Shown piece by piece: positions 42,516 to 62,752 of a DNA stretch of 64,000 nt. Source of the DNA: Tubulanus polymorphus. Taxonomy: Eukaryota; Animalia; Nemertea. Each line of letters begins with the position of its first letter. The stretch's first letter is position 1. The notes below the pieces were generated by a model. That model saw nothing but the letters and a program-made list of their open reading frames with translations, did no database searches and had not been told where the DNA came from. The stretch is from NCBI RefSeq assembly GCF_964204645.1, contig NC_134033.1:4550231-4614230 (forward strand). The letters are read 5' to 3'. The position numbers and the translations under genes are program-made.

Positions 42516-45109
42516 TTATTTACTGGATGTCGTCAATCCTAGTCGTCGTTTATTGCGTTCACGAATAGATTTCATATCGATAGATAGTATTGTATAAAGA
42601 AGCGGATTCAGAGACGAATTGATCGGTAAAAATAGAACGGCCAGCCAAGCGGCCACCTGGTTCGGTATCTCGACCGAAAATACGGCGCAAAACTGAACGA
42701 TTATTATCGGTAGCCAGCAAAATAAATTACAAAGATTGATTACTAAACTCCTTCGTGCTAAAACCAGTTCGGTAGGATCGGCTCTACCCGAGCCCGACCT
42801 ACTTCCAGATACGAGTCTATACATCTGAGCGTACGTCGTCATTATCGTAGCCAATATGGCCGCATTAAACAAGGCAAAAATAGCGAATGAATAGTGCCAG
42901 CCATTGACGTCGATCGTCAGTAAATTCATAAACAAACTCCGGTTGTACCGTAAAAATTGTCTCCGAAGTACGACGACGATGGCAGCGGTAGAATAGAAAC
43001 TGTGCTTATAACGAGCCAACAGATGCTGCAAATACCGATAACGTATTTCGGAGTTATAATCGGACTTCTAGAAAACGGGTTGACGATATTTGAATATCTC
43101 TGACGCGTAAGAATTAAGAGAAAAGTCAGGGAACCTTCGCACGAAACGGTGACAATAACCCCGGCGAGACGACATAATGAGCTATCCGTCCAGGTTTCAG
43201 AATTCAGATAATAAACGCCTTTGAACGCGTGGTCAGCTCCTGCGATCAAAAACAAATAGACCGACATCAGAAAATCACAACCGGCAATATTTATAATGAG
43301 GATGTCTGAAGATGTGTTACGTGTTCCGGAGGATTCCATCCGCAAAGCTTGAACGCGGAATAAAATAACGATACTGTTAGCGAGAAAACTGAAAGTTGCG
43401 ATCATCCAGATGATGGCTCTCAGTACAGCGTTACCCATCAGGTCAGAACAGGTCGAAAATTGATCAGCTTCGGGAAGACATAGGTCAACATTCGGTGCCA
43501 TGCAGCAAAATTTGTAAGCATCCGAAGCGAGGTATTTCAATGATGTAAGATCGCCAAGAACGTTTCTTTGTACGGATATTACTTCAAAATTGTTGACAAG
43601 GTTTAAAATTTCAAGTCGAACCAATCCAGAAAATGCATAGCTGGAAATATAATGGATTCTGTTACTGCTGATATTTAACGACTGTAATGCGGATAAACCT
43701 TTAAATACATTTTCACCGAGAACCTATATAGAAAGACCGTGAAGATCGAGAACAGTAAGTGACGTCAGACCTCGGAAACTACCATCTTCTAAATGTTGCA
43801 GCGGATTTCCGATAAGAAATAGTTGTTTTAAACCGATCAAACCTGCGAATGTATTAGCAGATAATGATGTTATGCGGTTGTGAGTAAGGTCTAATGTGTA
43901 TAGATTGCTTAGATTATAAAACGCGTTTGGAACGATGTAAGACAAATTATTGTCCGAAATATCGAGAAAACGAAGATAAATGAAAGAGTTGAAGGTCGAC
44001 TCGTTAAATACGACTCGGTTATTCGACAAAATCAAAACCCGAGTTGATTCTATAAAACGACCAGTAATATCTGATAAAAGAGCATTTTCACAATCGATGA
44101 AATGACCCCGGCAATTACAACGTTCAGGACACGTGACCTTACAGTATGACTCGTCATCTGAGTAATGTTTACAATTTACGACGCCGTCGCAAACTTCAGA
44201 TTGCGGAATACATCGATTTTCCTGACCACATTTAAACATTCCCGGACACGACCAAGTCTCGCAGTTTCGTTCATCTTCTGAATTAGGACAATCGGATCGA
44301 CCGTCACAAACGTGTCTGATCGGTATACAGTAAGATGCCGGACATTTTACAGTACCAGCCGCGCATTCGAAGTCATTACACGCGAGTATATGTTCAAGAT
44401 TTCTACATACCGGGAAATCAATCGGCATCCTTTCTAAAATACACCTTTCGTGTCGGGAATAACAGCGAGGAGAATTGAACGAACATCTTTGTTCATCCGA
44501 TTCCTTACACAGATCTGTGAAACGAGTCGTACAGTTATTGTCATTATTACAGTAAACCTCGGGATTCACTGTCATATTAGTGACCAATTCGTCTTCTTCG
44601 AGACTTCCGCTACAATCCACGACACCATCCCGATACAACTGAGAACTAATACATTCACCGTCCGCGCATGAGAACCCCAGACAAATTTCGGAATTGCATC
44701 CGATCTCATCGGAACCGTCTTTACAGTTGGCTAGTCCGTCACATCGTTTATAACTATCGATACATTGGTGATTGGAACAGCGATATCGCGTAGATAAACA
44801 CGGTGGATGATAGCACGAGTTCTCATCCGAGCCATCGACGCAATCTCTCATAAAGTCACAGAAACCGCTTATCGATATAACCTGTCCATCGTTACAGCGG
44901 AACTGACTGTGTAAATTGATATCCGTACAATCGAGTTCATCTTCACCGTGTTGACAGTCGTGTCTGGTATCACATACGCGATGGTCGCTGATACATCTTT
45001 GATCGCTACATTCAAACTGCCATGATTTACAACCGCTTATAGAAGCTGATTCTTCACCAGTTACATTATAGGTACACAACACGGAATGCACTTTATCTGT
45101 TATATTATC
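42516..45109 (-). pseudogene. Receptor copy C, 3' part (LDLa-LRR-7TM)
   Basis: Highly similar to copy B; TCG>TAG at 43724-43726; 4-bp deletion near 42928; cut by the Polinton. Confidence 0.92.
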
Positions 45110-45296
45110 AGTAATAGGGATAATAGGCTTTCAGGCCAAAGGTCGAACGGTCGAGCTCGTAAAAAATGAAAATAATAATAATTTACAGTTGAATTAGTCG
45201 CGCACACTCCTAATTCAACTGTAAATTATTATTATTTTCATTTTTACTCACCCGCCCGTTCAACCTTTGACCAGAAAGCCTATTATCCCTATTACT
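45110..45296. repeat. Left terminal fold-back palindrome (187 bp)
   Basis: agtaatagggataataggctttc...ttacagttgaattag [tcgcgcacactc] ctaattcaactgtaa...gaaagcctattatccctattact. Confidence 0.95.
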
Positions 45297-45465
45297 CTTA
45301 AAATATTCACATATATGAATAATATTTAAATCATTGAACTTCTAAAATCAATTTTAATAAAAAATATAGTATTAAAATGGAAGCAAATAAATACTACTGC
45401 CCAACATGTAATATCGATATAGACAAGTCTCAAAAAGCAAGACACAATAAAACTATAACACATTT
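45297..45465 (+). repeat. Left subterminal inverted repeat (partner of 62581-62752)
   Basis: Near-identical reverse complement; contains the upstream region and first ~29 codons of the pPolB gene. Confidence 0.95.
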
Positions 45466-45937
45466 AGAGAATAAATTGAAACTAGAATATAAGGATGATA
45501 TATTAGAAACTAAATTAGAAGAATTAAAGAATGAAAAAGAAACATATAAATGTGATACATGTAATCAATCATTCAGTGATAAAAGATATTATAAAGAACA
45601 TTTAAAATCTATAAGTCATATTAGAAATAAGAATAATGATATTTTAGGTGAAGATTATTTTGATAATGATAACGATAAGAAACAGAAGACAATTTAAAGA
45701 ATAAAAAATAAATTAAACAATAAAAGACCATACATGGAAGATGTAAGAAATTATATTAATTCATTAGATAATAAAAAAGATATAGAGATAACCGAAGCAT
45801 TTAAAAGTGATATTGGTCCAGCAGCTATCGAGTTTAAATTTCATAAAGGTAAAACATTAGAAGAAAATAAAAAACATTTAGAAAATATGAAAGAAATAAT
45901 AAAAATAATTACAGATGTTGAAACATCCCAAAAATAG
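45377..45937 (+). pseudogene. Disrupted N-terminal zinc-finger region of the pPolB gene
   Basis: Two C2H2-like fingers (CPTC..H..H, CDTC..H..H); ORFs 45377..45697 and 45734..45937 share a frame separated by one TAA; frame change near 45922. Confidence 0.7.
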
Positions 45938-48906
45938 AAAGAGATAATAATATAAAGATAAATGTATTTGATTTAATCAAATTACCAAATACAAAAGGAA
46001 ATAATATTAAACATTATACATTAGAACCTTTATACCTATCAAAAGATTATGATTCAAACGATGTTATAGATATACTATATTATGAGAATCATTATATGTG
46101 GATTAAACAAATAGATTTATTTTTCAAATCAGAAAATGATCACCATAAAATATATCTATGTAGAAAATGTTTACATAAATTTAGTAATGAAAGTACATTA
46201 TTAAATCATAAACAACTATGTGATAATCATGATTATTGTAAATTAGTTTTACCAAATGAAAAAGATAAAATATTAGAATTCAAAAAATATGATTACAAAA
46301 ATAAAGTACCATTTATAATATATGGAGATTTTGAATCATTAAATAAAGAATTAACTGATCAAGATAGAAAAGATATATATTATAAAAGAAAGAAATTAAA
46401 TTCTAATGAAAGTGATTATTCAGAAGAACCACCAAAAACAAATACTATTAAAAAGATTCATCAATCAGCTGCAGCTTTCGGGTTATATATAAAATCTAAT
46501 TATCCAGAACTAATCGAAAGTGAATATTATAATTATAGAAATGAAAATGTTATCAATCATTTTTGTGACTTATTAATTGAATATGAAATAAGATTTAGTA
46601 AATTATTGAATACAAATAAAGAAATAATTATGACAGAAGAAGATAAAGAAGAATTTGCGTTTGCAGATAAATGTTATTATTGTGAAAAGATATTTAATTA
46701 TAAAGATAAAAAAGTAAGAGACCATGATCATTTGAATGGAAAGTTTAGAGGCGCTGCACATGAGAATTGTAACTTACAAGCTAAGAAAATTAATTTTGTA
46801 CCAGTTATATTTCATAATCTATCAGGATATGATGCACATTTATTTATCAAACAGTTATGTTATAAAATAGAAGAAATCAATAATGAAATAGAAATATTAA
46901 ATTCAAATAGATCAAAAGATAAAATACCAACTTATAAATTTAAAATGTTAGCTAAAACATCTGAGAATTATATATCATTCCAATTTGGTTGTTTAAGATT
47001 TATAGATTCATATAGATTTTTAAATAGTTCATTAGATAACTTATCTAAATCATTAGTTGATGATGAATTAAAGATATTAAAAGAATATTACCCAAATTAT
47101 GATGATTTTAAATTAATGAGATATAAAGGAGCAATTCCATATTCTTTCTATAAAAATCATAATGATTTTAAAATAACTGAATTATTGAAAGAACAATTCT
47201 ATGATGAATTAAAAAATGAATATGTTAAAGATGAAGTTTATAATAGAACATTGAATATTTGGAATCATTTCAAAATAGAAAATCATGGACAATTAGTAGA
47301 TTTATATTTAAAATCAGATGTATTATTATTAACCGATATATTCGAAAGGTTTAGAGATGTAAACCTAAAATATTTTAACATTGATCCATGTCATTGTTAT
47401 TCATCACCAGGATTAACATGGGATTGTGGTTTAAAATTTACAGATATAAAAATGGATTTGTTAACAAATATAGATCAATTACTATTATTTGAAAAATCTA
47501 TAAGAGGAGGTGTTTCAGGTGTATTGGGTGATAGATATTTCAATGTAAATGATAATCCTGGATATAAATTATTATACATAGATGCAAATAATCTTTATGG
47601 TTGGGCAATGATGGAACCACAACCTTATGGGATGTTTGAAATAACTGAAGTTTTACAAATTGATAAATTTGATTGGAAGAAAAGAATCCTAGATATTGCA
47701 GATGATTCAGATATTGGTTACTTCTTTGTTGTAGATTCAGAATACCCTGAAAATATTAAATTCAAATCTAGAAATCTAGCATATTGTCCCGAACATAAAA
47801 CTGTTAAACATGAAGAATTATCAAATTATCAAAAAAGAATTAAACCCGATAATCATATTCATACTGAAAAGTTAATGGTAACTCAAGAAGATAAATATAA
47901 TTACGTTGTGCATTATAGAATGTTAAAATTCTATTTGAATCAAGGAATGATATTAAAAAAAGTACATAGATATATTTCATTTAATCAATCTAAGTGGTTA
48001 GAAAAATATATAGATTTTAATACTACACAGAGAACTAAATCTAAAACTGATTTTGAAAAAGATTACTTTAAACTAATGAATAATGCGTTCTATGGAAAAA
48101 CATGTGAAAACATAAGAAATAGAAGTGATATTGAGTTAGTTAGTAATGGTAAAAGGATAAGGCATTTACAATCGTATCCGAAATTCATAGGTAACAGAAT
48201 ATTTGATGAAAATTTAGCAGCAGTTAAAATGAGAAGAACAAGTATGAAATTTAATAAACCAATTTATGTTGGTGCATCGGTTTTAGAGTTATCAAAGCTA
48301 TTGATGTATAAATTTTATTATAACATATTACAACCCCATTTTGGAGAAAAAAATATAGAAATTCTATACTTTGATACAGATTCTTACATATTAAAGATAA
48401 AAAGTGATAATATAAAAGATGATTTAAAAATATTAAATCATCATTTCGATTTTAGTAACTATCCAAAAAATCATGAATTGTTTAGCAATGATAATAAAAA
48501 AGTTCCAGGGAAGTTTAAGGATGAATTAGGTGGTGAAGAAATGATAGAGTTCATTGGTATTAGATCTAAAATGTATTCATATAAAACTAAAGAACATGAA
48601 GCTAAAAAGTTAAAAGGAATAACCAAAAATGTAGTAGAAAAGAATATTCATTTCAAAGATTACATCAATTGTATATTTAATGAAGAAGTTAGAAAACATA
48701 AAATGAAATGTTTAAGATCTGAAGATCATGAAATGTATATTGAAGAGATAGAGAAGATAAGTCTAAACCCATTTGATGATAAAAGATATATTTTAGATGA
48801 TGGAATCCACACAGTCGCCTATGGTTGCAATTTAGATGAATATATAAAATTCAAAAGAGAAGAAACAAAAGAAAATGAAATTATGAAAAGGATTCTAACG
48901 TGTTAA
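45922..48906 (+). CDS. polB: Protein-primed-type family B DNA polymerase with inserted HNH/EndoVII domain
   Basis: ExoI YGDFES, ExoII FHNLSGYD, ExoIII YLKSD; Pol motifs YIDANNLYG, KLMNNAFYGK, YFDTDS; insert CYYC..VRDHDH..FRGAAHENCN. Frame is open from 45922 (IPKIERDNNIKINVF...HYMWIK), first ATG at 46096. Confidence 0.95.
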   Translation, partial: NIPKIERDNNIKINVFDLIKLPNTKGNNIKHYTLEPLYLSKDYDSNDVIDILYYENHYMWIKQIDLFFKSENDHHKIYLCRKCLHKFSNESTLLNHKQLCDNHDYCKLVLPNEKDKILEFKKYDYKNKVPFIIYGDFESLNKELTDQDRKDIYYKRKKLNSNESDYSEEPPKTNTIKKIHQSAAAFGLYIKSNYPELIESEYYNYRNENVINHFCDLLIEYEIRFSKLLNTNKEIIMTEEDKEEFAFADKCYYCEKIFNYKDKKVRDHDHLNGKFRGAAHENCNLQAKKINFVPVIFHNLSGYDAHLFIKQLCYKIEEINNEIEILNSNRSKDKIPTYKFKMLAKTSENYISFQFGCLRFIDSYRFLNSSLDNLSKSLVDDELKILKEYYPNYDDFKLMRYKGAIPYSFYKNHNDFKITELLKEQFYDELKNEYVKDEVYNRTLNIWNHFKIENHGQLVDLYLKSDVLLLTDIFERFRDVNLKYFNIDPCHCYSSPGLTWDCGLKFTDIKMDLLTNIDQLLLFEKSIRGGVSGVLGDRYFNVNDNPGYKLLYIDANNLYGWAMMEPQPYGMFEITEVLQIDKFDWKKRILDIADDSDIGYFFVVDSEYPENIKFKSRNLAYCPEHKTVKHEELSNYQKRIKPDNHIHTEKLMVTQEDKYNYVVHYRMLKFYLNQGMILKKVHRYISFNQSKWLEKYIDFNTTQRTKSKTDFEKDYFKLMNNAFYGKTCENIRNRSDIELVSNGKRIRHLQSYPKFIGNRIFDENLAAVKMRRTSMKFNKPIYVGASVLELSKLLMYKFYYNILQPHFGEKNIEILYFDTDSYILKIKSDNIKDDLKILNHHFDFSNYPKNHELFSNDNKKVPGKFKDELGGEEMIEFIGIRSKMYSYKTKEHEAKKLKGITKNVVEKNIHFKDYINCIFNEEVRKHKMKCLRSEDHEMYIEEIEKISLNPFDDKRYILDDGIHTVAYGCNLDEYIKFKREETKENEIMKRILTC

Positions 48907-48934
48907 TAAATTTCAATAAAAATTTGTATAATAA

Positions 48935-49276
48935 ATGGAGAGTAAACAAGTACACAATGAATTCTTAGATAGAATTAAAGATACCACAAATGTAAAATCT
49001 GTAGATTATAAATTCAAAAAGTTAACAGAATTAACAATTCACAAGAAATATTTAATTACAAATATTGTTACAGTTACTAACAAATATGGAGATAAATTAG
49101 TAATTCATTTAGAATATGAAGGATTAAAAGGAAATAAATATAAATTCAGAACTTATTTACCAGATAGATTTCATAGATTATCAAGTGAAGATCTAGAAGA
49201 ATTATGTTCTGGAGATTTCTATTTCGTATACAAAGGTAAGAATGAAAAAGGGCACCATGAAATAGATTTCGAATAA
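48935..49276 (+). CDS. Small beta-rich protein, possible OB-fold ssDNA-binding protein
   Basis: FKKLTEL..KY.I....NKYG....YLPDRF...FVYKG pattern; immediately downstream of pPolB. Function inferred. Confidence 0.55.
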   Translation: MESKQVHNEFLDRIKDTTNVKSVDYKFKKLTELTIHKKYLITNIVTVTNKYGDKLVIHLEYEGLKGNKYKFRTYLPDRFHRLSSEDLEELCSGDFYFVYKGKNEKGHHEIDFE

Positions 49277-49293
49277 GAAAATATGTAAAATAA

Positions 49294-50052
49294 ATGGCGG
49301 AATTAAAAGAATACAGAATATTTATAGATTCTAGAAGGCTTACAAATTATAAATCACATAATTTACTAGTACAATTAGACAGAGAATTTAAGAATTGTGT
49401 AGATTTAAAATTAGTAAATATAAGTTTATGTAATTCTTTTTACAATGTATCGGATAAGTCTATTGAACATAGAGTCTTTTTAATTCATGATAGAAATAAA
49501 AGTAAATGGTTTCATCTTTATCTTAAACCAGGATTATATAATTTAGAAACATTAGCTCGAGAAATTAATAGAAGAGCTCGGTTGAAAATGGGTGCACCTG
49601 CTGGATTTGGATTAAGACTGATTAAAAGTGATAGTTCTGATAAAATAAGAATAAAATTAGGTAATGAAGATCAACATCAATTTCTAGTTAAAAAACCCTT
49701 AGCTAAAATTTTAGGAATAACCCCAGATGTAAGGATACGCAATGCTGATGCTACACCAAATATAATGCCTTTTACACATTTTTATATTTATTGCAATTTA
49801 ATCGATCCTACAAAAACATTCGAAGCAACTAAAGATATAACTTGTAATTCTGGTTTACTAAACATTTTACCATTGAAGAATGTTAAAGAATTTGGAACGC
49901 AAATAAATTATAATTTAACAGAATGTGATTTCAAACCATGCATTCCTCGTTTTAATAATTTTAGATTAGAAATTAGAAATCATAATGGATACTTAATTGA
50001 TTTAAATAACTTTCCTGTAATTTATGAATTAGTTATAAGATGTAAAGAGTAA
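49294..50052 (+). CDS. Probable minor capsid (penton, single jelly-roll) protein
   Basis: IFIDS, NSFYNV, PGLYN, YIYCNLI and FRLEIRNHNG.LIDLN pattern typical of Polinton/PLV pentons. Confidence 0.75.
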   Translation: MAELKEYRIFIDSRRLTNYKSHNLLVQLDREFKNCVDLKLVNISLCNSFYNVSDKSIEHRVFLIHDRNKSKWFHLYLKPGLYNLETLAREINRRARLKMGAPAGFGLRLIKSDSSDKIRIKLGNEDQHQFLVKKPLAKILGITPDVRIRNADATPNIMPFTHFYIYCNLIDPTKTFEATKDITCNSGLLNILPLKNVKEFGTQINYNLTECDFKPCIPRFNNFRLEIRNHNGYLIDLNNFPVIYELVIRCKE

Positions 50053-50068
50053 TTTTTTCACTATATAA

Positions 50069-50410
50069 ATGAATATAACTGTTGGACCGAGTATATGTTT
50101 TGGGTTTGATTTTAAACATGGTAAAGAAATGAGAATTAAACTAAATGATGTAATTACTGATATAAAAAGTAAATCATTTAACAATGCATCAATGATTGAT
50201 AAAGAAAATTATAATATAGAAAAAGTAATTGATTTAATTAAATCACCTTTAGAATATTATGAATTAAATGAAGATGGAATTATTGATGATATTAAAAACA
50301 TATTATCCAAAATATATGATAATCATAAAACTAGTAATGAAATAAATGTTGAAATAATCATAAATAAGTTAACTAAATATTTTGATGATAGTAATTTTTT
50401 TGATAAATAA
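50069..50410 (+). CDS. Hypothetical viral protein
   Basis: Intact, tightly packed ORF with TAAATG start. Confidence 0.7.
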   Translation: MNITVGPSICFGFDFKHGKEMRIKLNDVITDIKSKSFNNASMIDKENYNIEKVIDLIKSPLEYYELNEDGIIDDIKNILSKIYDNHKTSNEINVEIIINKLTKYFDDSNFFDK

Positions 50411-50632
50411 ATGAGTGATAATAAGTGGATAATAACTGGATTATATAATGGCGCATTACTATCAGTTGGAACTGTTGGTTATTCAATGGTATTAAAAAAA
50501 GTATTCAAAATGGGAAGTGTTAATGTTGATAGATTTGATATAAATGATATTTTAAAGTTAACATTAGCAGTTACTTTATCTAATTTAACTATTGATTATT
50601 TGGAAAAACAAAAATATATTCCTCCCATATAA
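50411..50632 (+). CDS. Small hydrophobic protein
   Basis: Two hydrophobic stretches; TAAATG start. Confidence 0.7.
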   Translation: MSDNKWIITGLYNGALLSVGTVGYSMVLKKVFKMGSVNVDRFDINDILKLTLAVTLSNLTIDYLEKQKYIPPI

Positions 50633-50656
50633 ATGCATAATTTTTTTGTTAAATAA

Positions 50657-51079
50657 ATGGCTTCTGCAATTATAACTATTATAGGATCGGCAATTGTTAA
50701 CGCTTTAGCATTTACTGGTGGTGGATATTTATTTAAACATATTGATAAAAATAGTTCATTAGGAGAACAAAGAAGACATAACTTAGCGTTAGAGAAATAC
50801 AATAAAGCTGCAGAAGAATATAGAGAAAAAAGACAAAACTATATGGATTACATCAATAAAGAATTATATGATCAGAAGATTTCACATAGAGATTTTCAAT
50901 CAGTTGATGATGCAATGAGTTTATATAACGCAGTAACAAATAAAGAAAAATTACATCTATACAAACCTAAATTATCAGATTATTATACCCCGAGTAAAGA
51001 ACAACAGAAATATGAAATAATTTGGATTTTAGGTGGAACAGTTATTGTTATATTTGTTGCTTATAAGTTTACTAATTAG
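50657..51079 (+). CDS. Membrane protein (hydrophobic N- and C-termini, helical middle)
   Basis: N-terminal IIGSAIVNALAFTGG; C-terminal IIWILGGTVIVIFVAY; TAAATG start. Confidence 0.75.
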   Translation: MASAIITIIGSAIVNALAFTGGGYLFKHIDKNSSLGEQRRHNLALEKYNKAAEEYREKRQNYMDYINKELYDQKISHRDFQSVDDAMSLYNAVTNKEKLHLYKPKLSDYYTPSKEQQKYEIIWILGGTVIVIFVAYKFTN

Positions 51080-51098
51080 TAATTTTTATTCTAAATAA

Positions 51099-51533
51099 AT
51101 GGAAGATAAAGTTGATAGTATTGATATTATTCCTCATGATATAAATAAAACTAAATTAAAAACATATTTAGAAAAACAAATATTAGAATTTGAAAGTGAC
51201 TTAAAGATAAAAAAGAAAAAATATTTAAAAAGTAAAATTATATATTATTTGATTATAAGTGGTTCGGTTACAATTAGTTCTGTAATAACATTTCTAGCAA
51301 TATTTAGTCCATTAACACCTTTAGCTATATCAATTGGTGTATTAGGATTAAGTTCAAGTGTTTTAACTGGTATAAGTTCAAAATTAAATATAAAAAGTAA
51401 TAAAGAAAAAATCAAAACTAATATAAAAGAAATTAATAAATTAAAGAACACACTAGATTATATAATAAGTTTAAATGGTCATATAACAGTTGAAGAACAA
51501 GATAAATTATTAAAAGAATTAATAAATTATTAA
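51099..51533 (+). CDS. Two-TM membrane protein
   Basis: Central paired hydrophobic helices flanked by Lys-rich helices; TAAATG start. Confidence 0.75.
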   Translation: MEDKVDSIDIIPHDINKTKLKTYLEKQILEFESDLKIKKKKYLKSKIIYYLIISGSVTISSVITFLAIFSPLTPLAISIGVLGLSSSVLTGISSKLNIKSNKEKIKTNIKEINKLKNTLDYIISLNGHITVEEQDKLLKELINY

Positions 51534-51549
51534 TTTTTTAATTATATAA

Positions 51550-52851
51550 ATGGGGTTTCCAAAAGCTTTCCAATATAATAAATCAATTAAATATAATGTT
51601 CCGGCAATAGATTTTAAGAAAAATATTACATATAAAAATATAGTTTTAAATTCATTAACTAATTTAGAAATTTATGTTAATGAATCACAGTTTTTTATTT
51701 CTAAAATGGAAAATATATTTAATACATATGAAGTTACTTTTACTCGAGATGAATATCATATATATAAAGTAAAATCTAATATGAAATATTGGCAGAATCA
51801 ATTAAATTTTGCTGTTTATTGTGCAACAACAGGATGTGGAATAAGTTGGAATGATCATTTAAATAACTTAGATAAAAATTTGAAGTATTCTGATTTAAAA
51901 TTAATTCACACAATATTTAGATTTCACACATATTTTCAAATCAGAATAATATTAAATGAATTAGAATGTCCTTTACCCGGGTCTAAATATTTTAAAGAAT
52001 TGGATAATAATATTAATATATCCAAGTTTTATAAAATATGTAATGAATTTAATATAAATATTAATTCCGATTTTAGAGCGCATGGTAAATTGCAAGGTGT
52101 TGGTGAAGAGTTTGAAATAAAAAGAATTGATTATATGCATAGAATTGGAGCTTATCATAATTATAAAATTGATAATAATAATGGTTGGGTTAATTTCATT
52201 TTAGAAAATGGTGAAGGTTTTACAAAATCAGGTATACAAAGAATAAATCAATCTATTAGAATTTATTTGATATGTATTTTAGGCGCTCAAGTTGAAACAA
52301 GATCCCAAATAATTGGAAATGATAACACTTCATTCGATGCGCAGAAACAGTTTAAAGTTTTATTTGAAGATTCCATACATGATGATAAAAATAGATCGAT
52401 TCCAGAAAACATTATAAGATATCAAAATTATTTAGATAAATCTCATGTAAGACTTAATTATTGTATAGGCCCTAATCTATTAATTATTTCTAATGATTTA
52501 GTATTGAAGATGGGAAACATAATTGGTTATAATAATATAATTAAAACTGCAACAATAAATAATTCATTTGGATTGAATGATATAAATAAAAAGATTATTA
52601 CTGCTCCAAAATTAATGGAAGGTGAAAAAAATAAAAAACACATTCAATCAACAGAAACTAAAACTAAGAATATTAAATTAAATAATGATTCTAAAATAAA
52701 AGATTACAATACATCAGAAAATATTAGAACTGATAAAATTCAACATGATATAATTAAACTAAATGATGATAATAAATCACATGAAAATACTAAATTAGCT
52801 ATAACTTGTATAGGAATTGTAATCGGAGGAATATTATATTTTAAATTTTAA
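51550..52851 (+). CDS. Hypothetical protein with C-terminal TM anchor
   Basis: 433-aa intact ORF; WQNQLNFAVYCATTGCG block; C-terminal LAITCIGIVIGGILYF. Confidence 0.8.
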   Translation: MGFPKAFQYNKSIKYNVPAIDFKKNITYKNIVLNSLTNLEIYVNESQFFISKMENIFNTYEVTFTRDEYHIYKVKSNMKYWQNQLNFAVYCATTGCGISWNDHLNNLDKNLKYSDLKLIHTIFRFHTYFQIRIILNELECPLPGSKYFKELDNNINISKFYKICNEFNININSDFRAHGKLQGVGEEFEIKRIDYMHRIGAYHNYKIDNNNGWVNFILENGEGFTKSGIQRINQSIRIYLICILGAQVETRSQIIGNDNTSFDAQKQFKVLFEDSIHDDKNRSIPENIIRYQNYLDKSHVRLNYCIGPNLLIISNDLVLKMGNIIGYNNIIKTATINNSFGLNDINKKIITAPKLMEGEKNKKHIQSTETKTKNIKLNNDSKIKDYNTSENIRTDKIQHDIIKLNDDNKSHENTKLAITCIGIVIGGILYFKF

Positions 52852-52867
52852 TTTTTTTATTATGTAA

Positions 52868-54329
52868 ATGGATGTAGAAGGTGGAGAAGATTATGAAATG
52901 GGAGAAATGGGAAATGATAATGAAGGATATATTGATGATGATTATAATGATGCAGAAACTAATATTGATAATGATGATGAATCAGCATATAATTCTAATT
53001 TAGCAGATAGTGGTTCTAAAGGTCAATCAACAGATGAATTTGATAGAAGAACTAGATCGAGAATAAATCCTGAAAATGAAAATCCAGATTTAGTAAAACA
53101 AAATTTAGAATATAATGAATATATTTATAATTTCAAACCTATATTTGAAAAATCTGGATATGATATATATGCTAGAGGCGCCAGACTTTTAGTACAAGAA
53201 TTAAAATCTTTAGATGGTGAATATTATTATCGTTTGAAAGATGATTATTATATTGATATCTCTTATAAAAAACAAAACAAAATATTAGCAGAATCAACTT
53301 TGCTTAAGTCTGACTCATTACTATCTAGAATTAAAAGAATAAGAAATAGTAATGATATAGAAGATGTAACACAAGAAGAAATTATTAAAAATGAAAGAGT
53401 ATTTAAACAAAGAATTAATGAATTATTTGAAACAATCAATAATAATTTAGAACCAGAAACAACTTCTGAACAGAATATAACTTCCAAAACTAGTAAACTT
53501 AAATCAAACACTGAAGTTCAAACTGAAAAACTTTTACCGAATGGATTACTTGATGCAACAGATCAAGAAATAGAAGCTTTAAGAATGTTTTCTAAAAAAA
53601 CAATTAGAGAAATAATAAGTATACGAAATGATGCCGATAAAATTGCTCGCGAAAAACATATTAGATATAATAAAATTAAACCTTTAGAAAATAAATTATT
53701 TGACACCAGAAAAGAATTAGAACAATTAAAATTAGATAGAGAATTTAAAGTTATTGAAGAAATTGAATTTAAAAAAAAGAAATGCATATTTAGAAAAAGA
53801 AATTGATGATTTAGAATATAACATAGAATTTCAGAAAGAAAAAATGAAATTATTATTAAAATCATACGATTATTGTATCAATAGATTAAAAGTTGTTGTT
53901 AAAGAGTTAATACTAAAACCAAATTCTGACATATCATTGAAAGATAGAATAAAATTATTATTTAAGTTTGAAGGAATAACAGTTCTTTCAATTCTAACAG
54001 CTGTAACTATGTTATTTACAACAATTGGTTTAGCAATATCAAATGCTTTGAAATCTACTCCTACTCCAAATAAACCAGATAAACCTCCAGGTAATAATTC
54101 TATACAAGATAAAGTTAAAGATGGTTTAAAGAAATTAGCAAAATATTTATGGGAACTATCAAAGAAATCTGCTGCAGCACTACCAGGAGTTATTGCTTCA
54201 ATTGTTGGTTTTATATTGAAATCTGCAGGTAATATTCTTAACTTTGCTGCTGAACATATTATTTTATTTTTAATCACAGTTGTAAGTGCTATTATTTTTG
54301 GGTTAGTAAACATGATAAAAAATAAATAA
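52868..54329 (+). CDS. Coiled-coil protein with hydrophobic C-terminal helices, split by one extra A
   Basis: ORFs 52868..53806 and 53754..54329 fuse (EFKKRNAYLEK) if one A is removed from the A8 run at 53771-53778; the second ORF lacks its own ATG/TAAATG. Confidence 0.7.
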
Positions 54330-54349
54330 TTAATTTTTTTGTTAAATAA

Positions 54350-55597
54350 ATGAGTGGGAGTTATATAAATCCTTCTAAGATTTCTAGAATATCTAATGCT
54401 ATTAAAGCAGAAAGATCACATCATATAATTACTCATAACCCTTCAAATATTAATCCCGATGAAACTTTATACGTTAGAATTCCGAGATTAACACAAAATA
54501 CTTTTTATGTTCCAAACAGTATTTATTTATCAGCTGATATAAAAGTATCTCGTAATAATAATAATTATGTCGTTGATAATGTTGGAAGATATTTGATTAA
54601 AAAGTTAACAATAAAGATTGGTCCGGAAACAGTTTTCTCATTAGATGATTATAATTTATTTATGCATTATAAAGATTTATGGTTAACAAAAGAAAATAGA
54701 AATAATATGATATTTCAAGGCATCCAATCAGAAAACCAAAATAAATTAAGATCAGAAGCTAATAGCGCAATATTAACTAATGATGTAGATAAATTGATAA
54801 AAAGTATATATGGAAGCAAATATAAAATTCCATTAGACTTTGAATTGATAAATAATAATGCACCTTTATATAAATACGCAATTCAAGAAGATATTATATT
54901 TGAGATAACATTTGCTCCTGTAAATGAAATTGTAATATCTAGCGTTAATAAAGATATGAGTTATAAATTATCGAATATATGTTTAGAATATAACACAGTA
55001 ACTAATGAAAATATTGCTAGCACAATTCAAACTCAATACAATCAAGGATTTTCATTATTATATGATTATATTGATAAATTTAAAACTGTAACTATTAATG
55101 CAAATGATGAAATAATAAATGAGAATATTAACTTTCCTAGAAGATCTATTAAAGGTATATTAATATTTTTTACTATTGGAACATATACTAATGGTGCAAT
55201 AAATGTTGACAATTATTATAATCCTGAAATAACAAAAGTAGAAATAACTATTGAAGGAATAGCGAATAAAATATTTTGTCAAGGAATGAGAATGATAGAT
55301 CAATGGGTAGAAATTAAAAAACATTTTATGAATGAAAAAGTAAAATCATTTGAAAATTGTAACATTAATCAAATTGACTATTATACCGGTAATAAATTTG
55401 CATTATGGTTAGATTTTAGAACAACTGAAGATAATTCATTACATGGTTCTGGAAAAAAACTACAAAACACTAAAGATGGAATACAATTATTCATGACAAA
55501 GAAAAAGGGAATCAAAAATTTTAAAATGCACATTTATATTATATCTGACGCGCAATTAAATATTATAAATTCACAATTAGATAGTGTTATGTATTAA
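54350..55597 (+). CDS. Probable major capsid protein (double jelly-roll)
   Basis: 415 aa, beta-rich; IPLDF, YKLSNICLEY, INENINFPRRSIKGILIFF, FALWLDFR, YIISDA; size and position fit a Polinton MCP. Confidence 0.8.
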   Translation: MSGSYINPSKISRISNAIKAERSHHIITHNPSNINPDETLYVRIPRLTQNTFYVPNSIYLSADIKVSRNNNNYVVDNVGRYLIKKLTIKIGPETVFSLDDYNLFMHYKDLWLTKENRNNMIFQGIQSENQNKLRSEANSAILTNDVDKLIKSIYGSKYKIPLDFELINNNAPLYKYAIQEDIIFEITFAPVNEIVISSVNKDMSYKLSNICLEYNTVTNENIASTIQTQYNQGFSLLYDYIDKFKTVTINANDEIINENINFPRRSIKGILIFFTIGTYTNGAINVDNYYNPEITKVEITIEGIANKIFCQGMRMIDQWVEIKKHFMNEKVKSFENCNINQIDYYTGNKFALWLDFRTTEDNSLHGSGKKLQNTKDGIQLFMTKKKGIKNFKMHIYIISDAQLNIINSQLDSVMY

Positions 55598-55629
55598 AAT
55601 TTTAACTTTAATAAAAATGTATATAATAA

Positions 55630-56571
55630 ATGGAAGGAGGTAAAGTATATAAACATATTCCATACATCGATACACATGAAAATAATGATGGTTTATATTA
55701 TGTAATACCTTGTAATATAGCTTTGATATTTGATCCTATTTTTAAAAATTATAAAACTAAACTGATAGAAATCAATAATAATAAAAGTGGTGTTGTTAAT
55801 GATAGTGTAATTGATAATAATGTAATACCTACTACACCTGTAATACCTACTACTACATCTGTAATACCTACTACTACATCTGTAATACCTACTACTACAT
55901 CTAATAACGTAATACCTACTACATCTGTAATACCTACTACATCTAATAACGTAATACCTTCTACATCTAATAATAAAATAATATTAGATGTTAGTGAAAA
56001 TAGAAATTATTGTGGTTATTGTAATGGTGAATTTTCAAACGCTCCATCAAATTGGAATAAACATATGAATACAAATTCACATATTACTAATGTTATAGAA
56101 CGTGTTGGTTTAAGAGAATTTATAGAACACCCATTTAGATATGTTACAAAGTTTGTTTCAAATAAAAAAGTAAATGGTGAAAAAATATATGAAGATTTAT
56201 TATTAGCAACACCTAATAAAGATGAATTAGATTTAACTGATGCTAATGAAATATTAGGATCAAACACTGTAAATGAAATATTAGGATCAAACACTAATAA
56301 AGATGATAATGAAAATGATGCCATACACCCACATGATGATATAGTTACAGTTAAACATATTTATATTAAAGATTCTATGAAACATAAAGAAGAAACTATT
56401 GATGATATGATAAAAAGGATCAATAAGCGTAACAATGAAACAACTATTGGTGGTGTGGTAAAAAAGGCGAAAAAGGTGAAAAAAAATTATAAAGATGTTG
56501 AAGAAGATACGGTAGAGTATTTGAATATGTTGTTAGCGTCTGATAGTGAAAGTGATTCAGAAATTGAATAA
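55630..56571 (+). CDS. Hypothetical protein with VIPTTTS repeats and a C2H2-like finger
   Basis: gtaatacctactac repeats at about 55820-55970; CGYC...WNKHMNTNSH. Confidence 0.7.
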   Translation: MEGGKVYKHIPYIDTHENNDGLYYVIPCNIALIFDPIFKNYKTKLIEINNNKSGVVNDSVIDNNVIPTTPVIPTTTSVIPTTTSVIPTTTSNNVIPTTSVIPTTSNNVIPSTSNNKIILDVSENRNYCGYCNGEFSNAPSNWNKHMNTNSHITNVIERVGLREFIEHPFRYVTKFVSNKKVNGEKIYEDLLLATPNKDELDLTDANEILGSNTVNEILGSNTNKDDNENDAIHPHDDIVTVKHIYIKDSMKHKEETIDDMIKRINKRNNETTIGGVVKKAKKVKKNYKDVEEDTVEYLNMLLASDSESDSEIE

Positions 56572-56640
56572 TAAAGGTTGAAAATTGTATAAAATAATAG
56601 TAAATAAAAAAAGGGTTTTAATTATTTAAGGTATCTAATA

Positions 56641-56710
56641 GGGTATCAGGTATTAGGGTATCAGGTATTAGGGTATCAGGTATTAGGGTATATAATAGGG
56701 TATCTAATAC
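56641..56710 (+). repeat. 15-bp tandem repeat (GGGTATCAGGTATTA)x3 plus two variants
   Basis: Directly visible, at the junction of the convergent gene blocks. Confidence 0.9.
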
Positions 56711-56726
56711 ATAGGTATACAAATAG

Positions 56727-57338
56727 TTATTTTATAAATTTATATTCATAAGGAAATTGTAATCTCAGTAATAATTTTGAACCTTTATTATTTTTTAATT
56801 TATTCATATATTCATCATGTAATTCAGGAGGTATAATTTGATTTTCTTCCAATGATTGTTGCATAGATTTTCTATCTTTGTTGTAGAATAAAACTAGAAA
56901 TCTTATATTCTCTCTAAAATCTTTAACAATTGAATTATATTTCTGATTTAAAACCCATGTTGTTATCCCAAAATGTCTACCAGAGAAAGCTAAATAACAT
57001 AACTCACTTTCTCTAATTTTAGAATCATGTAAATTTGCGCAATCATCGATAATAAATAATGTATTAGATCCTTTATAAATATCTAATACAATTTTTATAC
57101 AATTATCTAAATTTTCTTTTACTGTTTTAGGGTCTAATATAATAAACTTTTTTATCTTAACTATATCTCTATTATATGTTTTATTCGTTTCATATGTAGG
57201 ACAGAATAATATTATATTATCAAAATGATTTTTATAAATAGTTTCTAACAAATCTAATATGAAATGTGTTTTACCACAATTTGTAACTCCAATAACTAAC
57301 ATATTATGTGGTTCAAATATAAATAAATCTTTATTCAT
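56727..57338 (-). CDS. A32/FtsK-like genome packaging ATPase
   Basis: Walker A GVTNCGKT, Walker B LFIIDD, GRH arginine motif, downstream Q..IVKDFREN. Confidence 0.92.
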   Translation of the reverse strand: MNKDLFIFEPHNMLVIGVTNCGKTHFILDLLETIYKNHFDNIILFCPTYETNKTYNRDIVKIKKFIILDPKTVKENLDNCIKIVLDIYKGSNTLFIIDDCANLHDSKIRESELCYLAFSGRHFGITTWVLNQKYNSIVKDFRENIRFLVLFYNKDRKSMQQSLEENQIIPPELHDEYMNKLKNNKGSKLLLRLQFPYEYKFIK

Positions 57339-58419
57339 TTATTCTTTTAATTTTACTAGATAAAATCCATTCATTAAATTTATCATCATATCCTTTATAT
57401 TTCACCAAAGAATACTTTTTTCCTTTAAGAGTTTTTGTTTTCAATACCTTTTCTATTTTGTATTCTATTTCATCTGGATTTGGTACTAATGATAATTCTT
57501 GTTCATAAAAATAACCTAATATTTCTTCATCTTTTAAATCAAACAATTTATAAACAAATGGTTTAGTTAATATTATCTTTTTAATTTTGAATATTTCTTC
57601 TGTAAAATTAGGGGTATAACCTTTATAAAATGTTTTTCGATATTTAGAAATTCTAACGTGTTGTCCTATTTTAAATTTAGGTTCTCCAAAATCATGTGTA
57701 ACAAATGCTCCATATAAATTATTCCAAACTATTTCTGAATTTTCTTCTTTTCTAGCTTGTATAGGTTTCATATTTATAGAACTATGTTTAGAATTATTAT
57801 AACCTTTAACTAAATCATCTAACACATCGATATATTTATATGTTTCATTAGCAGTAAAATATTTCCACATTCTAGTTTTCAATGTTTTATTAAATCTTTC
57901 TATAACAGATGCTTTTTTATCTGAATGTGTTGAAAAATATTCTACTTCGTTATCAGATAATAGTTTTTTAAAATGTTTGTTATAAAATTCTTTACCTTCA
58001 TCAAATTGTATTTTATCTGGAATAGCTTCTTTAAATATGGATTTAAAAGCATTTGTAACTTCTATTCCAGTTTTATTTTTAATCGGGATACTCCATGCGT
58101 ATCTACTGAATATGTCTATAACATTTAGTATCCAAAAATATCCTTTGTTATATTCTTCTAAGTTTTTCATGTCAATTAAATCTGCTTGCCATTGTTGATC
58201 GATATATGAAACCATTACTTTTCTTGTTAAATATTTTTTATCCATCTTTTTATGAATTTGATATGTGGGTTGATTTTGTAACCATGATTTTAATTCACTA
58301 TATTTTATATTGCTATTATCGGATTTAATTTTATTCCATAATTCTGAAACGTTAGAATATGAAACTTCACTTTCTGGGTTATAATATAAATCTCTTAAAT
58401 ATTGTTCTTTTTTCATCAT
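57331..58419 (-). CDS. int: Retroviral-like (rve) integrase with C-terminal chromodomain
   Basis: WQADLID, VIDIFSRY, IQFDEGKEF and VIERFNKTLK (DDE); IEKVLK...LVKYKGY...NEWI chromodomain. Confidence 0.96.
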   Translation of the reverse strand: MMKKEQYLRDLYYNPESEVSYSNVSELWNKIKSDNSNIKYSELKSWLQNQPTYQIHKKMDKKYLTRKVMVSYIDQQWQADLIDMKNLEEYNKGYFWILNVIDIFSRYAWSIPIKNKTGIEVTNAFKSIFKEAIPDKIQFDEGKEFYNKHFKKLLSDNEVEYFSTHSDKKASVIERFNKTLKTRMWKYFTANETYKYIDVLDDLVKGYNNSKHSSINMKPIQARKEENSEIVWNNLYGAFVTHDFGEPKFKIGQHVRISKYRKTFYKGYTPNFTEEIFKIKKIILTKPFVYKLFDLKDEEILGYFYEQELSLVPNPDEIEYKIEKVLKTKTLKGKKYSLVKYKGYDDKFNEWILSSKIKRINE

Positions 58420-58422
58420 ATT

Positions 58423-58797
58423 TTAATCCATTAATAATATTTTAGATTTATTTTCATTTGATTTATTTTCTGGTATAATAGGTTTATTGTCTGTACATGG
58501 ATAACTAAGTTTCCGATCATCTTTATCGTCAGATTTGAATTTTGATTTATATATTACACCGGATAATATAATAATTGTGATTAACCCAATTGTAATATAT
58601 AAGTAATTATTTCTTCCACTATTAGAAGAATTAGATGGATTATTATTTGAATCAATATCAGATAATTTCTGTGATTCATTTATATCAGTTAATTTCTTTT
58701 TCTTAGCTTTTTTTAATTCTGATGATCTTTTACCTAATTCTCTTGCCCATTTAATTTGTTTCTCGGATCTAGCCTTTTTCTTAACTCCATCACTCAT
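58423..58797 (-). CDS. Basic single-pass membrane protein
   Basis: Lys-rich N-terminus and one TM segment; TAAATG start. Confidence 0.7.
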   Translation of the reverse strand: MSDGVKKKARSEKQIKWARELGKRSSELKKAKKKKLTDINESQKLSDIDSNNNPSNSSNSGRNNYLYITIGLITIIILSGVIYKSKFKSDDKDDRKLSYPCTDNKPIIPENKSNENKSKILLMD

Positions 58798-59395
58798 TTA
58801 TTTTAGTTAATTTTTGTTCTGATTCATCTTCTGTTTCGTGGTTTGGTTGTAGTACATCTGTTTCGTTCTTACCTGATTTATATTCCATAGGTTTGATGTT
58901 CGAAAATGTTATAACTCCAGTAGAAATCAATGTCATAACCGATCCTAATTGAAATGAAGCATATCCAACCCATTTTTGTAATTCAGTCATAACTAAATAG
59001 TCATTTTTCAAATCATTATATAATTTATTTTCATCATCAATTGGTATTAGCCGGTTACATAATTTTGAATAACATTTGATAATACCATCACTTATAGAGT
59101 CGTTTATTCTAGCTAATCTTGACTCTTCATAAATCTTAAAATATTTGATTACTTTTTCTTTATTCATATTATCTAATTCTTGAAAAGTTATTGTTTTACC
59201 AATAAACTCTTTAGTTTTTCCACTCGCAATCAATAGTTCTAGATGATGTTTACAATATAAATAGTATTCATAATCAATATTACTATCAATTTTATTATCA
59301 CATTTAGTTGCCACATTATCATTATCATCTGTTAAACCTAAATCTTCCAAAGTTTTTTCAACCTTAATATTATTCTTATTCGATTTCTTAGACAT
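58790..59395 (-). CDS. Hypothetical viral protein
   Basis: Intact 201-aa ORF with TAAATG start; overlaps the next gene by 8 bp. Confidence 0.7.
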   Translation of the reverse strand: MSKKSNKNNIKVEKTLEDLGLTDDNDNVATKCDNKIDSNIDYEYYLYCKHHLELLIASGKTKEFIGKTITFQELDNMNKEKVIKYFKIYEESRLARINDSISDGIIKCYSKLCNRLIPIDDENKLYNDLKNDYLVMTELQKWVGYASFQLGSVMTLISTGVITFSNIKPMEYKSGKNETDVLQPNHETEDESEQKLTKINE

Positions 59396-59619
59396 TTATA
59401 TTAGAGAAATTTAATAAGAATAGTATTATAAGTATTCTTCAAATGATACTAGCTAGTTAAAGTTAAAGAATTCTAGTATTAGTTATTTTTTTTTAGTATT
59501 TTTTATTTGTGATATAAAGTATTCTTTTTTGAAAAGAAAATATTAAAAATTAAAATAGAAATAATGTCTAGTTGAAGGTATGTAATTTTTATTATATTTT
59601 ATTTGAGATATATTATTCT

Positions 59620-60288
59620 TTAACCACTCATTAAAGACTCAACGTATTGTTCATTATTTGGATTATTATTCCATAATTCAATAAATTTCTTTGCTTTTGT
59701 TAACCGTTCTAAATATAATTGTAAATCTAGTTTATTAGATTTGATTTGATTTTCTTTCTTTTCTAAAGGCCTTAGATTCTTCCAATTCCAAATAAGTTTT
59801 TTATTATATTCATCATTCATGTTAAATTTAGATATTGGTAACACGTGATCAATGTGGTAATAATCCCCATAATTATCTATATTCATTTTATCATCGAATT
59901 GAAATATTATCCATGATTTGAGAAATTCATCTGAACAACCCAACAAATTAGATAGTGTTTCTGAATGTGTTTCTTTGTTGAATAATTGTGTTAATCTAGT
60001 CCTTAAGCATTGTTTCAATCTAAAATTAAGATCTGTTTGATATCTTTCTCTCATATATTTTGTCATATAATAATTATAATGTTCTATATTATCTTCTCGA
60101 TATTGTTTGGTGTATAGTTTAGCACAAGTTTTACAACAATTTTGAAAACCATCTTTGCTAATCTTACGCTTACTAAATTCTGTTATAGCTAATTTATTTA
60201 ATTCACATTTAGAACACTTCTTGTAATATATGTTTATAACGCCAGTGTTATTTGTAATATTGATAATTTGTGGTTGTTCTGGTTCCAT
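59620..60288 (-). CDS. Zn-ribbon plus HNH endonuclease of the type common in large DNA viruses
   Basis: CSKC...CKTC; LGCS; NYG.YYHIDHVLP...NLRPL...N..KSNK. Confidence 0.85.
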   Translation of the reverse strand: MEPEQPQIINITNNTGVINIYYKKCSKCELNKLAITEFSKRKISKDGFQNCCKTCAKLYTKQYREDNIEHYNYYMTKYMRERYQTDLNFRLKQCLRTRLTQLFNKETHSETLSNLLGCSDEFLKSWIIFQFDDKMNIDNYGDYYHIDHVLPISKFNMNDEYNKKLIWNWKNLRPLEKKENQIKSNKLDLQLYLERLTKAKKFIELWNNNPNNEQYVESLMSG

Positions 60289-60429
60289 TTATTATACGTA
60301 TTTTTTTACTAAATTGGTTAATAATTTTAGAATCCTCTTCCATTTCTCCGACTAACGTAATCCTTTTTCATTCCTCGCTGTTTTTGATAAGTCAGTTTCG
60401 ATTCCTTGATATCTAAATAATACCACTGG

Positions 60430-60900
60430 GCAAAACCGCTCTTATAGGAGCGCTTTTGCTTAATGCGCATGCGTTAATCATAATTATATATTCATTCTGT
60501 AAATTCTGTAAAATAGAAACGACTGACATAAAATATCAAAACGTGTTCGCACTAAGCAAAACCGCTCTTATAGGAGCGTTTTTGATCAATGCGCATGCGC
60601 TAATCATAATTATATATTCATTCTGTGAAATAGAAACAACTGAACATAGAAAATTCAAACACATATGCACTAAGCAAAACCGCTCTTATAGGAGCGTTTT
60701 TGATCAATGCGCATGCGCTAATCATAATTATATTTACATAATGAATATATAATTATGTAAATAGAAACGACCGACATAAAATATCAAAACGTGTTCGCAT
60801 TAGGCAAAACCGCTCTTATAGGAGCGCTTTTGCTTAATGCGCATGCGTTAATCATAATTATATATTCATTCTGAATAGAAACGACGGAACATAAAAATTC
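60430..60900. repeat. Four ~120-130-bp tandem repeats with palindromic cores
   Basis: Units start at 60430, 60556, 60674 and 60804; core gcaaaaccgctcttataggagcg(c/t)ttttg followed by tgcgcatgcg. Confidence 0.95.
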
Positions 60901-60987
60901 ATCAATCAGATTTACACAATACATTATACAAGTTGTTCGGTCGTTGTATTGACAAAATTTATATTTTCAACTAATACATTATTTTAT

Positions 60988-61764
60988 TTATAATTCCAAC
61001 CAGAACTTTTCAATTTCTGGATCATTGTCAAACATTTTTTCAATATCGTTTAAATATTTTACTATATCAGAAAATGACAAACTTAAAAATTGGAATCTTT
61101 TATATGTAATTAATCTCCCTACACTTCTTAATTTTCTTTCATACTCAGCACTAATACCTATATATTTTTTAACCCAAGAAGTCCAAGAAATCCCCGCAGT
61201 TTGTTTATTAAACATTAAAAATCCCCTATTTAAACAATCCCCGAAAATGATATAATCCCATAAATGCTTTGCCTTTTTGAATAACAAGGTCCTATAATTT
61301 TTTTTCAATAAAACAGTTATTTCATTAAATGATGTTATACCTTCTATTTCTTTAAAACTTACATCTTTTTCAATTGATAATTTTGATTTTAAAAACTTAT
61401 TTAACTCATTTCCGCTCATTTTCTTTTTAGTTTTTGTTCCTTTTCCTTTTAGTCTTAACAATATTTCTACATTGGTTGTTGGTCTTTTCGGTAATGATGT
61501 TACACTTGATTGCTGGTTTTCTATAATTTTTTCTAAAATTAATGTCATTTCTTGATGGTAATATAAATGTTTTTTAACTTCTTCTAACGTTTCATCTTCT
61601 ATATCGAAAGATTCTTTTACTTCAACACCCATTTCGATTGGTTCATATTCCATTTCGGTTGGTTCATATTCCATTTCGGTTGGTTCATCTTCCATTTCGG
61701 TTGGTTCATCTTCTATTTCGGTTGTGCTCTGAGAATCAAGAGTACTTCTTGATACACACGACAT
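60988..61764 (-). CDS. Hypothetical protein with 7-aa acidic repeats
   Basis: E(D/Y)EP(T/I)EM repeats encoded by 21-bp units; first ATG at 61764 in TAAAATG context. Confidence 0.7.
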   Translation of the reverse strand: MSCVSRSTLDSQSTTEIEDEPTEMEDEPTEMEYEPTEMEYEPIEMGVEVKESFDIEDETLEEVKKHLYYHQEMTLILEKIIENQQSSVTSLPKRPTTNVEILLRLKGKGTKTKKKMSGNELNKFLKSKLSIEKDVSFKEIEGITSFNEITVLLKKNYRTLLFKKAKHLWDYIIFGDCLNRGFLMFNKQTAGISWTSWVKKYIGISAEYERKLRSVGRLITYKRFQFLSLSFSDIVKYLNDIEKMFDNDPEIEKFWLEL

Positions 61765-62580: not shown

Positions 62581-62752
62581 AAATGTGTTATAGTTTTATT
62601 GTGTCTTGCTTTTTGAGACTTGTCTATATCGATATTACATGTTGGGCAGTAGTATTTATTTGCTTCCATTTTAATACTATTTTTTTTATTAAAATTGATT
62701 TTAGAAGTTCAATGATTTAAATATTATTCATATATATGTGAATATTTTTAAG
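62581..62752 (-). repeat. Right subterminal inverted repeat
   Basis: Reverse complement of 45297-45465. Confidence 0.95.

Follow-up and report, generated by a model that had tools for sequence, protein, structure and literature searches.

The closest described counterparts of the element reported here are the animal Mavericks (Polintons) or adintoviruses (Starrett et al. 2021, PMC8502044; Jeong et al., 10.1101/2023.08.22.554363). The element occupies positions 45110–63158 (18,049 bp) of a 64,000-nucleotide stretch of the nemertean Tubulanus polymorphus (NC_134033.1, positions 4,550,231 to 4,614,230), referred to below as the window. It is a Maverick/Polinton, having a protein-primed family B DNA polymerase (pPolB), a retroviral-type integrase, a double jelly-roll capsid protein and a packaging ATPase, together with inverted repeats, a 6-bp target-site duplication (range for such elements, 5–8 bp) and a fitting length (range 13–25 kb). 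With the animal Mavericks it shares the PF03175-type pPolB with an endonuclease insert, the rve integrase, the ATPase, the capsid type, the inverted repeats, the 6-bp duplication and the length of 18 kb. Unlike them, it has TAAATG on nearly all of its genes and large fold-back palindromes at its ends, and no adenovirus-like maturation protease was matched in Pfam (all 20 open reading frames, ORFs) or NCBIfam (16 of the 20), several ORFs being unassigned. The word 'promoter' is absent from the main text of both papers, and a literature search over titles, abstract openings and text excerpts, largely outside subscription journals, found no report of TAAATG or of a giant-virus-type promoter in animal Mavericks.

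Three further systems bear comparison. Mavirus and the EMALEs of Cafeteria (PMC10945749) likewise integrate, combine an rve integrase with pPolB, carry a giant-virus-type start motif and occur in several copies per genome; in contrast, the window element has a capsid outside the Sputnik family and an animal as its host, and a helper or defence role is here only proposed. Polinton-like viruses associated with entomopoxviruses (Barth et al. 2024, PMC11296320) are also Polinton-related elements of animals, proposed to be hyperparasites of a TAAATG-using family, but they are ∼12 kb long and have a protease and either a tyrosine recombinase or no detected integrase. The main text of that paper mentions no promoter, motif or TAAAT. 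Among algae, polinton-like viruses activated by a helper are known (10.1101/2025.10.09.676808). Against this background, the window element carries a real, lineage-wide signal in an element of known kind.

TAAATG at the gene starts of one Maverick lineage

An earlier note on this DNA had drawn attention to a poxvirus-late-like TAAATG at 14 of 17 ORF starts between 48900 and 60310, an interval that proved to be part of a longer element extending beyond it at both ends. The motif itself is as described. TAAATG with its ATG as the start codon was verified at 48935, 49294, 50069, 50411, 50657, 51099, 51550, 52868, 54350 and 55630 on the plus strand and at 57338, 58797, 59395 and 60288 on the minus strand; TAAAATG is present at the starts at 45377 and 61764, and TAAAATATG before the integrase. 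The count of 14 of 17 applies without the pieces of split genes at 45734, 46096 and 53844, and becomes 14 of 20 with them. Gaps between genes, said to be mostly 0–35 bp, run from –8 to 37 nt on the same strand, with exceptions of 224 and 699 nt.

Three null rates were computed for the element. TAAATG occurs at 23 of 299 out-of-frame ATGs (7.7%), TAA in upstream windows in 72 of 900 cases (8%), and TAAATG at 567 of 8514 first ATGs after a stop in the shuffled element (6.7%). The proposed enrichment over a shuffle thus holds, with P values of 2e-14 to 2e-13 for 14/17 and ≤1e-11 for 14/20. It also holds against host genes, where none of 17 ORF starts has TAAATG. Over the whole window the hexamer is only mildly enriched (115 versus 89 ± 9), which indicates that the signal is positional.

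The motif is one part of a larger layout. Starts with the motif have A at –18 in 55 of 73 cases and T at –12 in 68 of 73, compared to T at –12 in only 42 of 129 TAAATG hexamers that are not at starts. Between –18 and –12 lies a core that is either A-rich or T-rich, followed by a short spacer and then by TAAATG on the start codon. Where two genes diverge, the motif is present on both sides in seven of nine pairs, with the ATGs 19–72 nt apart, and in six overlaps it is encoded within the last codons of the upstream gene. This anatomy fits one promoter per gene. A division of the genes into two fixed temporal classes, intermediate with an A core and late with a T core, was considered and dropped: orthologues keep the core type only partly, the capsid gene having a T-type core in 10 of 14 orthologues, an A-type core in 3 and a mixed one in 1. 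A trans-splice acceptor was also ruled out, since none of the 14 starts has an AG ahead of its ATG.

To follow the signal through the lineage, we fetched 84 related loci by capsid alignment and counted ORFs of at least 100 aa. A clade of 16 loci was defined by capsid identity of at least 50%, a grouping made after the pattern had been seen. In these loci TAAATG stands at 54 of 64 starts, compared to 4 of 339 in the 68 others; independence of the counts is not complete, as the clade includes two pairs of near-copies, L001/L002 and L012/L013. Base composition does not account for the difference, since TAAATG is found at 1 of 30 starts in eight loci outside the clade with GC up to 36%, and at 5 of 7 starts in two clade loci with 40–44% GC. 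In a quick maximum-likelihood capsid tree (quick search only), the window and 15 clade loci fall on one 22-row branch with SH-aLRT support of 98, the other six rows being proteins without DNA context. The data fit a single origin of the signal. In the same branch, several Bartonella assemblies list capsids of the P0046 cluster among their proteins, likely as contamination from an animal host or vector. One clade member also encodes a deoxynucleoside kinase, whose gene starts with TAAATG (L003:10340-10981); the kinase has three relatives at 60–67%, and none of its 38 matches is a virus-named relative.

Two readings in which TAAATG is no promoter can be weighed on these data. The first takes it for stop–start coupling (TAA-ATG) on a polycistronic mRNA, or for a by-product of the 76% AT of the element. 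At 50410/50411 the TAA is indeed the stop of the upstream gene, but this is so at 1 of the 14 starts, and divergent genes carry the motif, as do overlapping ones, which together lead us to reject both coupling and composition; in addition, AT-rich relatives lack the motif and GC-richer clade members keep it. This explanation is refuted. The nulls, the conservation in the lineage and the arrangement of A/T core, spacer and TAAATG instead mark a positioned signal and not an AT artefact. The second reading, that TAAATG is a translation-initiation context, draws on the tie of the motif to the ATG and on a G at +4 in 46 of 66 starts. However, TAAATG is missing from all 17 host starts, animals disfavour T at –3, and the presence of another fixed element at –18 to –12 would be more usual for a promoter. 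We therefore consider a translational role improbable.

Poxviruses, giant viruses and virophages compared

In vaccinia, late promoters place TAAAT, most often with G as the next base, on the start codon and have a T conserved ten bases upstream; promoters of the intermediate class are richer in A (PMC11980589; the two classes are also described in PMC5294985). The most divergent fish poxvirus keeps TAAATG (PMC4542343). The window starts share with these promoters TAAATG on the start codon, an A- or T-rich core at a fixed distance, and a T about ten bases upstream, whose position agrees with the vaccinia description to within one base, by counting. The comparison made in the earlier note therefore stands as regards the layout of a poxvirus post-replicative promoter; a specifically poxviral helper does not follow from it. 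No description of a TAAATG start motif outside poxviruses was found in the literature we searched. Text matches in PMC4722103 and PMC6510173 are primers.

We then surveyed viral contigs. Two scans of IMG/VR with promoter patterns gave 81 loci, each of which has one such start by selection. The richest in TAAATG were a Sputnik-type virophage (9 of 13 starts) and several giant-virus contigs (43–58%); a true poxvirus in these scans has TAAATG at 6 of 20 starts. One of these giants, the bin G001, has an iridovirus-like capsid (E 5e-123 to 6ojn_A, a model from Singapore grouper iridovirus) and TAAATG at 7 of 22 starts in a stretch chosen without the motif. A scan for RNA polymerase, covering 15 of 64 parts of the collection, yielded 70 non-pox loci in which TAAATG stands at 128 of 1017 starts (12.6%), with four loci of at least five ORFs reaching 30%. 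In 27 chordopoxvirus loci, all from one central region, TAAATG is found at 9–15 of 18–31 starts each. On these counts, TAAATG is a better pointer to poxviruses and some iridovirus-related giants than to nucleocytoviruses at large.

Within that set, the signal does not single out poxviruses. By a profile contrasting poxviruses with other giants (cross-validation, 119/145 and 59/65 correct), 28 of 66 starts in the clade and 2 of 14 in the window come out as pox-like, which does not group the clade with chordopoxviruses, with the reservation that the giants had been chosen partly with patterns derived from the window, which biases the test towards giants. The core is common to poxviruses and iridovirus-related giants, and no sampled virus fits the full profile, the clade signal being sharper and more uniform than that of poxviruses.

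Several contigs are of interest in their own right. L138, the Sputnik-type virophage contig (9/13 starts, picked by motif), may be a parasite of a TAAATG-using giant virus, and L094, L159 and L176 (G001) as well as L136, L113 and L152 are giant-virus contigs, G001 being iridovirus-related, with TAAATG at 32–58% of starts. A capsid of the virophage family (Sputnik/mavirus) was considered for the window element and rejected: its capsid has no Pfam match, whereas L138 matches PF21915 and PF22031, and by Foldseek its predicted fold is closer to the capsids of PBCV-1 and iridoviruses than to that of mavirus.

How the genes may be transcribed

We think it reasonably probable that the element is a virophage-like Maverick dependent on a helper, its genes likely being transcribed by the late system of a nucleocytovirus, a pox-like or iridovirus-related virus being the leading candidate. 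As claimed earlier, no RNA polymerase appears to be encoded, with no family match among all 20 ORFs in Pfam or the 16 compared with NCBIfam. By analogy with poxviruses, the helper RNA polymerase would start in the AAA, slip and add a 5′ poly(A) leader in place of the unfavourable T at –3, and every gene would be served by a promoter of its own in a 16–30-nt gap. In a helper-infected cell the element would copy itself with its own polymerase and be packaged by its own capsid protein and ATPase; it would integrate and remain mostly silent without the helper. There is precedent both for promoter motifs common to virophage and helper (PMC10945749) and for polinton-like viruses in the occlusion bodies of entomopoxviruses (PMC11296320).

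Several points weigh against such dependence on a viral helper. Integration needs access to the nucleus. T at –12 is found at 92% of clade starts, 57% of poxvirus starts (152/269) and 56% of starts of other giants (37/66); as a poxvirus-specific mark it failed. The poxviruses sampled were chordopoxviruses, entomopoxviruses having been sought and not retrieved. Tolerance of poly(A) signals does not discriminate cytoplasmic transcription either: AATAAA occurs 62 times in 13.4 kb of coding sequence compared to 60 expected, and the test is uninformative because host ORFs are likewise undepleted, whereas poxvirus loci are depleted. (The depletion of T5NT, 19 versus 48 expected, goes with a wider depletion of runs of A and T.) Words in four repeats upstream of the minus-strand genes resemble host RNA polymerase II signals. 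Finally, loci just outside the TAAATG branch have TATAG at a distance of up to 30 nt from the ATG at 11 of 33 starts (1.0 expected); given these start words of sister lineages, TAAATG could belong to a promoter internal to the family that has drifted.

The sister Mavericks cut both ways. In AT-rich loci further out, TATAAA is found in 13 of 41 starts (1.2 expected; the expectations for both words are uncorrected for AT-rich gaps). TATATA is a late motif of asfarvirus type (PMC11788076), and the EMALE types of Cafeteria differ in motif (PMC10945749). The sister TATA words may thus reflect helper switching by family or an own, drifting promoter.

The second of these possibilities leads to a rival in which TAAATG belongs to a family-specific core promoter that host RNA polymerase II would use in the nucleus, possibly aided by a factor encoded by the element, the likeness to poxviruses being convergence. 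The TATA(G/A) words 5–14 nt before the ATG in sister lineages speak for it, as do the integration of the element and the four repeats (∼120 bp each, 60385–60873), which carry GCGCATGCG and TATAAGAG words and point towards the minus-strand genes. Each repeat has a 16-bp palindrome and a GCGCATGCG word, which we take to resemble an NRF1 site, and the repeats are possibly an enhancer, an origin or a nuclear promoter. However, GCGCATGCG is not conserved: of the 84 loci, just two have it, L050 and L005, in the latter within coding sequence. TAAATG takes in the start codon itself and so leaves no templated 5′ untranslated region, the 16–30-nt gaps serve two divergent genes, and no family of TATA-binding protein or other transcription factor was matched in the Pfam and NCBIfam searches, except for zinc fingers in the 45377 ORF. 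We regard a nuclear promoter as unlikely, though as the main rival.

A variant of helper dependence replaces the virus with a cytoplasmic linear plasmid that has its own RNA polymerase, like the yeast pGKL elements, for which TAAAAT-type initiators, polymerase slippage and 5′ poly(A) leaders are described (PMC6831550). The window element, however, integrates and encodes a capsid protein. We know of no RNA-polymerase-encoding cytoplasmic linear plasmid in animals, and consider this variant very improbable. With a viral helper as the reading we prefer, a search for that helper by shared genes gave two weak viral matches, both to the HNH-like gene described below.

Gene content, insertion site and implications

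The polymerase (45377–48906, plus strand; PF03175, E 2e-14) is likely one gene in three pieces, 45377–45697, 45734–45937 and 46096–48906, with zinc fingers, an endonuclease VII-like insert (PF02945, E 3e-5) and a TAAAATG start. It is 38% identical to the 1176-aa pPolB of L032 from residue 226 of the latter onward; the two short pieces have no match to that protein and likely belong to the gene by position. There follow on the plus strand, all with TAAATG starts, a 113-aa ORF with an A-rich core (48932–49276); a 252-aa ORF (49291–50052, coding from 49294), which from its size we take as a candidate minor capsid (penton) protein and which has no family match in Pfam or NCBIfam; four small ORFs of 113, 73, 140 and 144 aa with T-rich cores (50066–51533); a 433-aa protein conserved across the family (51547–52851), for which fold comparison gave no match (best Z 5.3 over 64 residues); and a conserved gene that is split near 53.8 kb here and is one 485-aa ORF in L003 (52865–54329). 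The major capsid protein (54347–55597, T-rich core, 415 aa) is predicted to be a double jelly-roll, with an AlphaFold pLDDT of 86 and Foldseek E 3e-16 to the capsids of PBCV-1 and iridoviruses; no relative of it turned up in IMG/VR, nor any match by sequence in PDB. The last plus-strand gene is a 313-aa ORF with an A-rich core and close relatives only (55627–56571). Between it and the convergent ATPase gene lies a short tandem repeat (56640–56720).

On the minus strand are an A32-like packaging ATPase (56727–57341; PF04665, E 1e-11), whose TAAATG lies within the last codons of the integrase gene, and the rve integrase with a chromodomain (57331–58419; PF00665, E 2e-9; PF00385, E 8e-5), whose start is without an exact TAAATG here and has one in L001. 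Two ORFs of 124 and 201 aa, conserved in relatives (58423–59398), and a 222-aa ORF (59620–60291) also have TAAATG starts. The latter is likely an HNH-type endonuclease, from a weak HNH match in its homologue in L001, and is 39% identical to the product of a gene adjoining a nucleocytovirus capsid gene in L101. A 258-aa ORF with a TAAAATG start (60988–61764) belongs to an unnamed family of 189 relatives, and read depth is lower over this segment.

The boundaries of the element are given by its termini (AGT first, ACT last), by a drop in GC from ∼37% to 24% between 45.1 and 63.2 kb (0.244 in the element, 0.375 in the host), and by its flanks. ATTATC stands on the left (45104–45109) and on the right (63159–63164), and the flanks align to a paralogous host receptor gene at 33205–33813 and 33808–34655, adjoining stretches whose 6-bp overlap confirms the target-site duplication. 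Each end is a fold-back palindrome, of 187 bp on the left (45110–45296; DNA fold –69 kcal/mol, z –19) and of 406 bp, branched, on the right (62753–63158; –98 kcal/mol, z –17). The terminal word bounds each palindrome in both orientations; these structures could serve as an origin, represent an intermediate in the replication of hairpin ends, or be a mini-element nested in the larger one. An inner terminal inverted repeat (45259–45465, plus strand) matches 62581–62790 at 96% over 210 columns and covers the 5′ end of the 45377 ORF. The CpG observed/expected ratio is 0.56 in the element (45300–60300) and 1.21 in the host stretch.

Read depth in DNA run X6 is ∼27–74 over host bins 668–6670 and 131–1017 over the element, and mixed loose ends are found at both termini (968 and 887 reads), which suggests, as a rough estimate, about ten related copies. 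An empty site is seen in 189 reads, but the host gene is multi-copy and its paralogues may be their source. Runs X8 and X7 give next to no coverage of the host stretch. Joints at 45488/59726, 49276/62703 and 62287/59638 (runs X6, X1 and X2) belong to other copies with different right ends or deletions. Summed contig depth in X1 is ∼40,000–210,000 over the element (45151–60123) compared to 10,000–17,000 over the flanks, whereas in X2 and X6 the two are about equal; amplification in sample X1 may be a lead, contig depth being no copy number. With its polymerase region in three pieces and the 52868–54329 gene in two, the copy in the window is probably dependent on sister copies or inert.

The host is an animal with many G-protein-coupled receptor genes; the clusters closest to it in the Atlas are mollusc and chordate ones. 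Tandem copies of a large, apparently intron-poor receptor gene fill 19.9–44.9 kb and 63.1–64 kb, with CUB, C-type lectin, LDLa, LRR and 7TM domains; several copies are in pieces and have high read depth, and the element is inserted in one of them. Pieces of reverse-transcriptase ORFs at 22365–25211 and 39502–40587 (PF00078 at 22365 and 39502) are likely remnants of long interspersed nuclear elements.

Animal Mavericks are debated as self-sufficient nuclear viruses, as transposons or as parasites of larger viruses, and experimental virophage systems are, to our knowledge, all from protists. A strictly positioned, lineage-wide signal of giant-virus type speaks, at the level of sequence, for helper dependence in animals. 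On the favoured reading, transcripts would begin within the AAA and carry poly(A) leaders, in infected samples only, and the signal may serve as a search key for the helper virus. We raise tentatively, as a wider and rather doubtful possibility, that whole lineages of animal Mavericks are integrated virophages, each with the late-promoter signature of its helper, the TAAATG branch having switched to a pox-like or iridovirus-related system of aquatic invertebrates and its sisters using asfarvirus-like TATA initiators. If this is true, start-codon motifs would point to undiscovered giant viruses of animals, and inducible defence of the mavirus kind would extend to animals.

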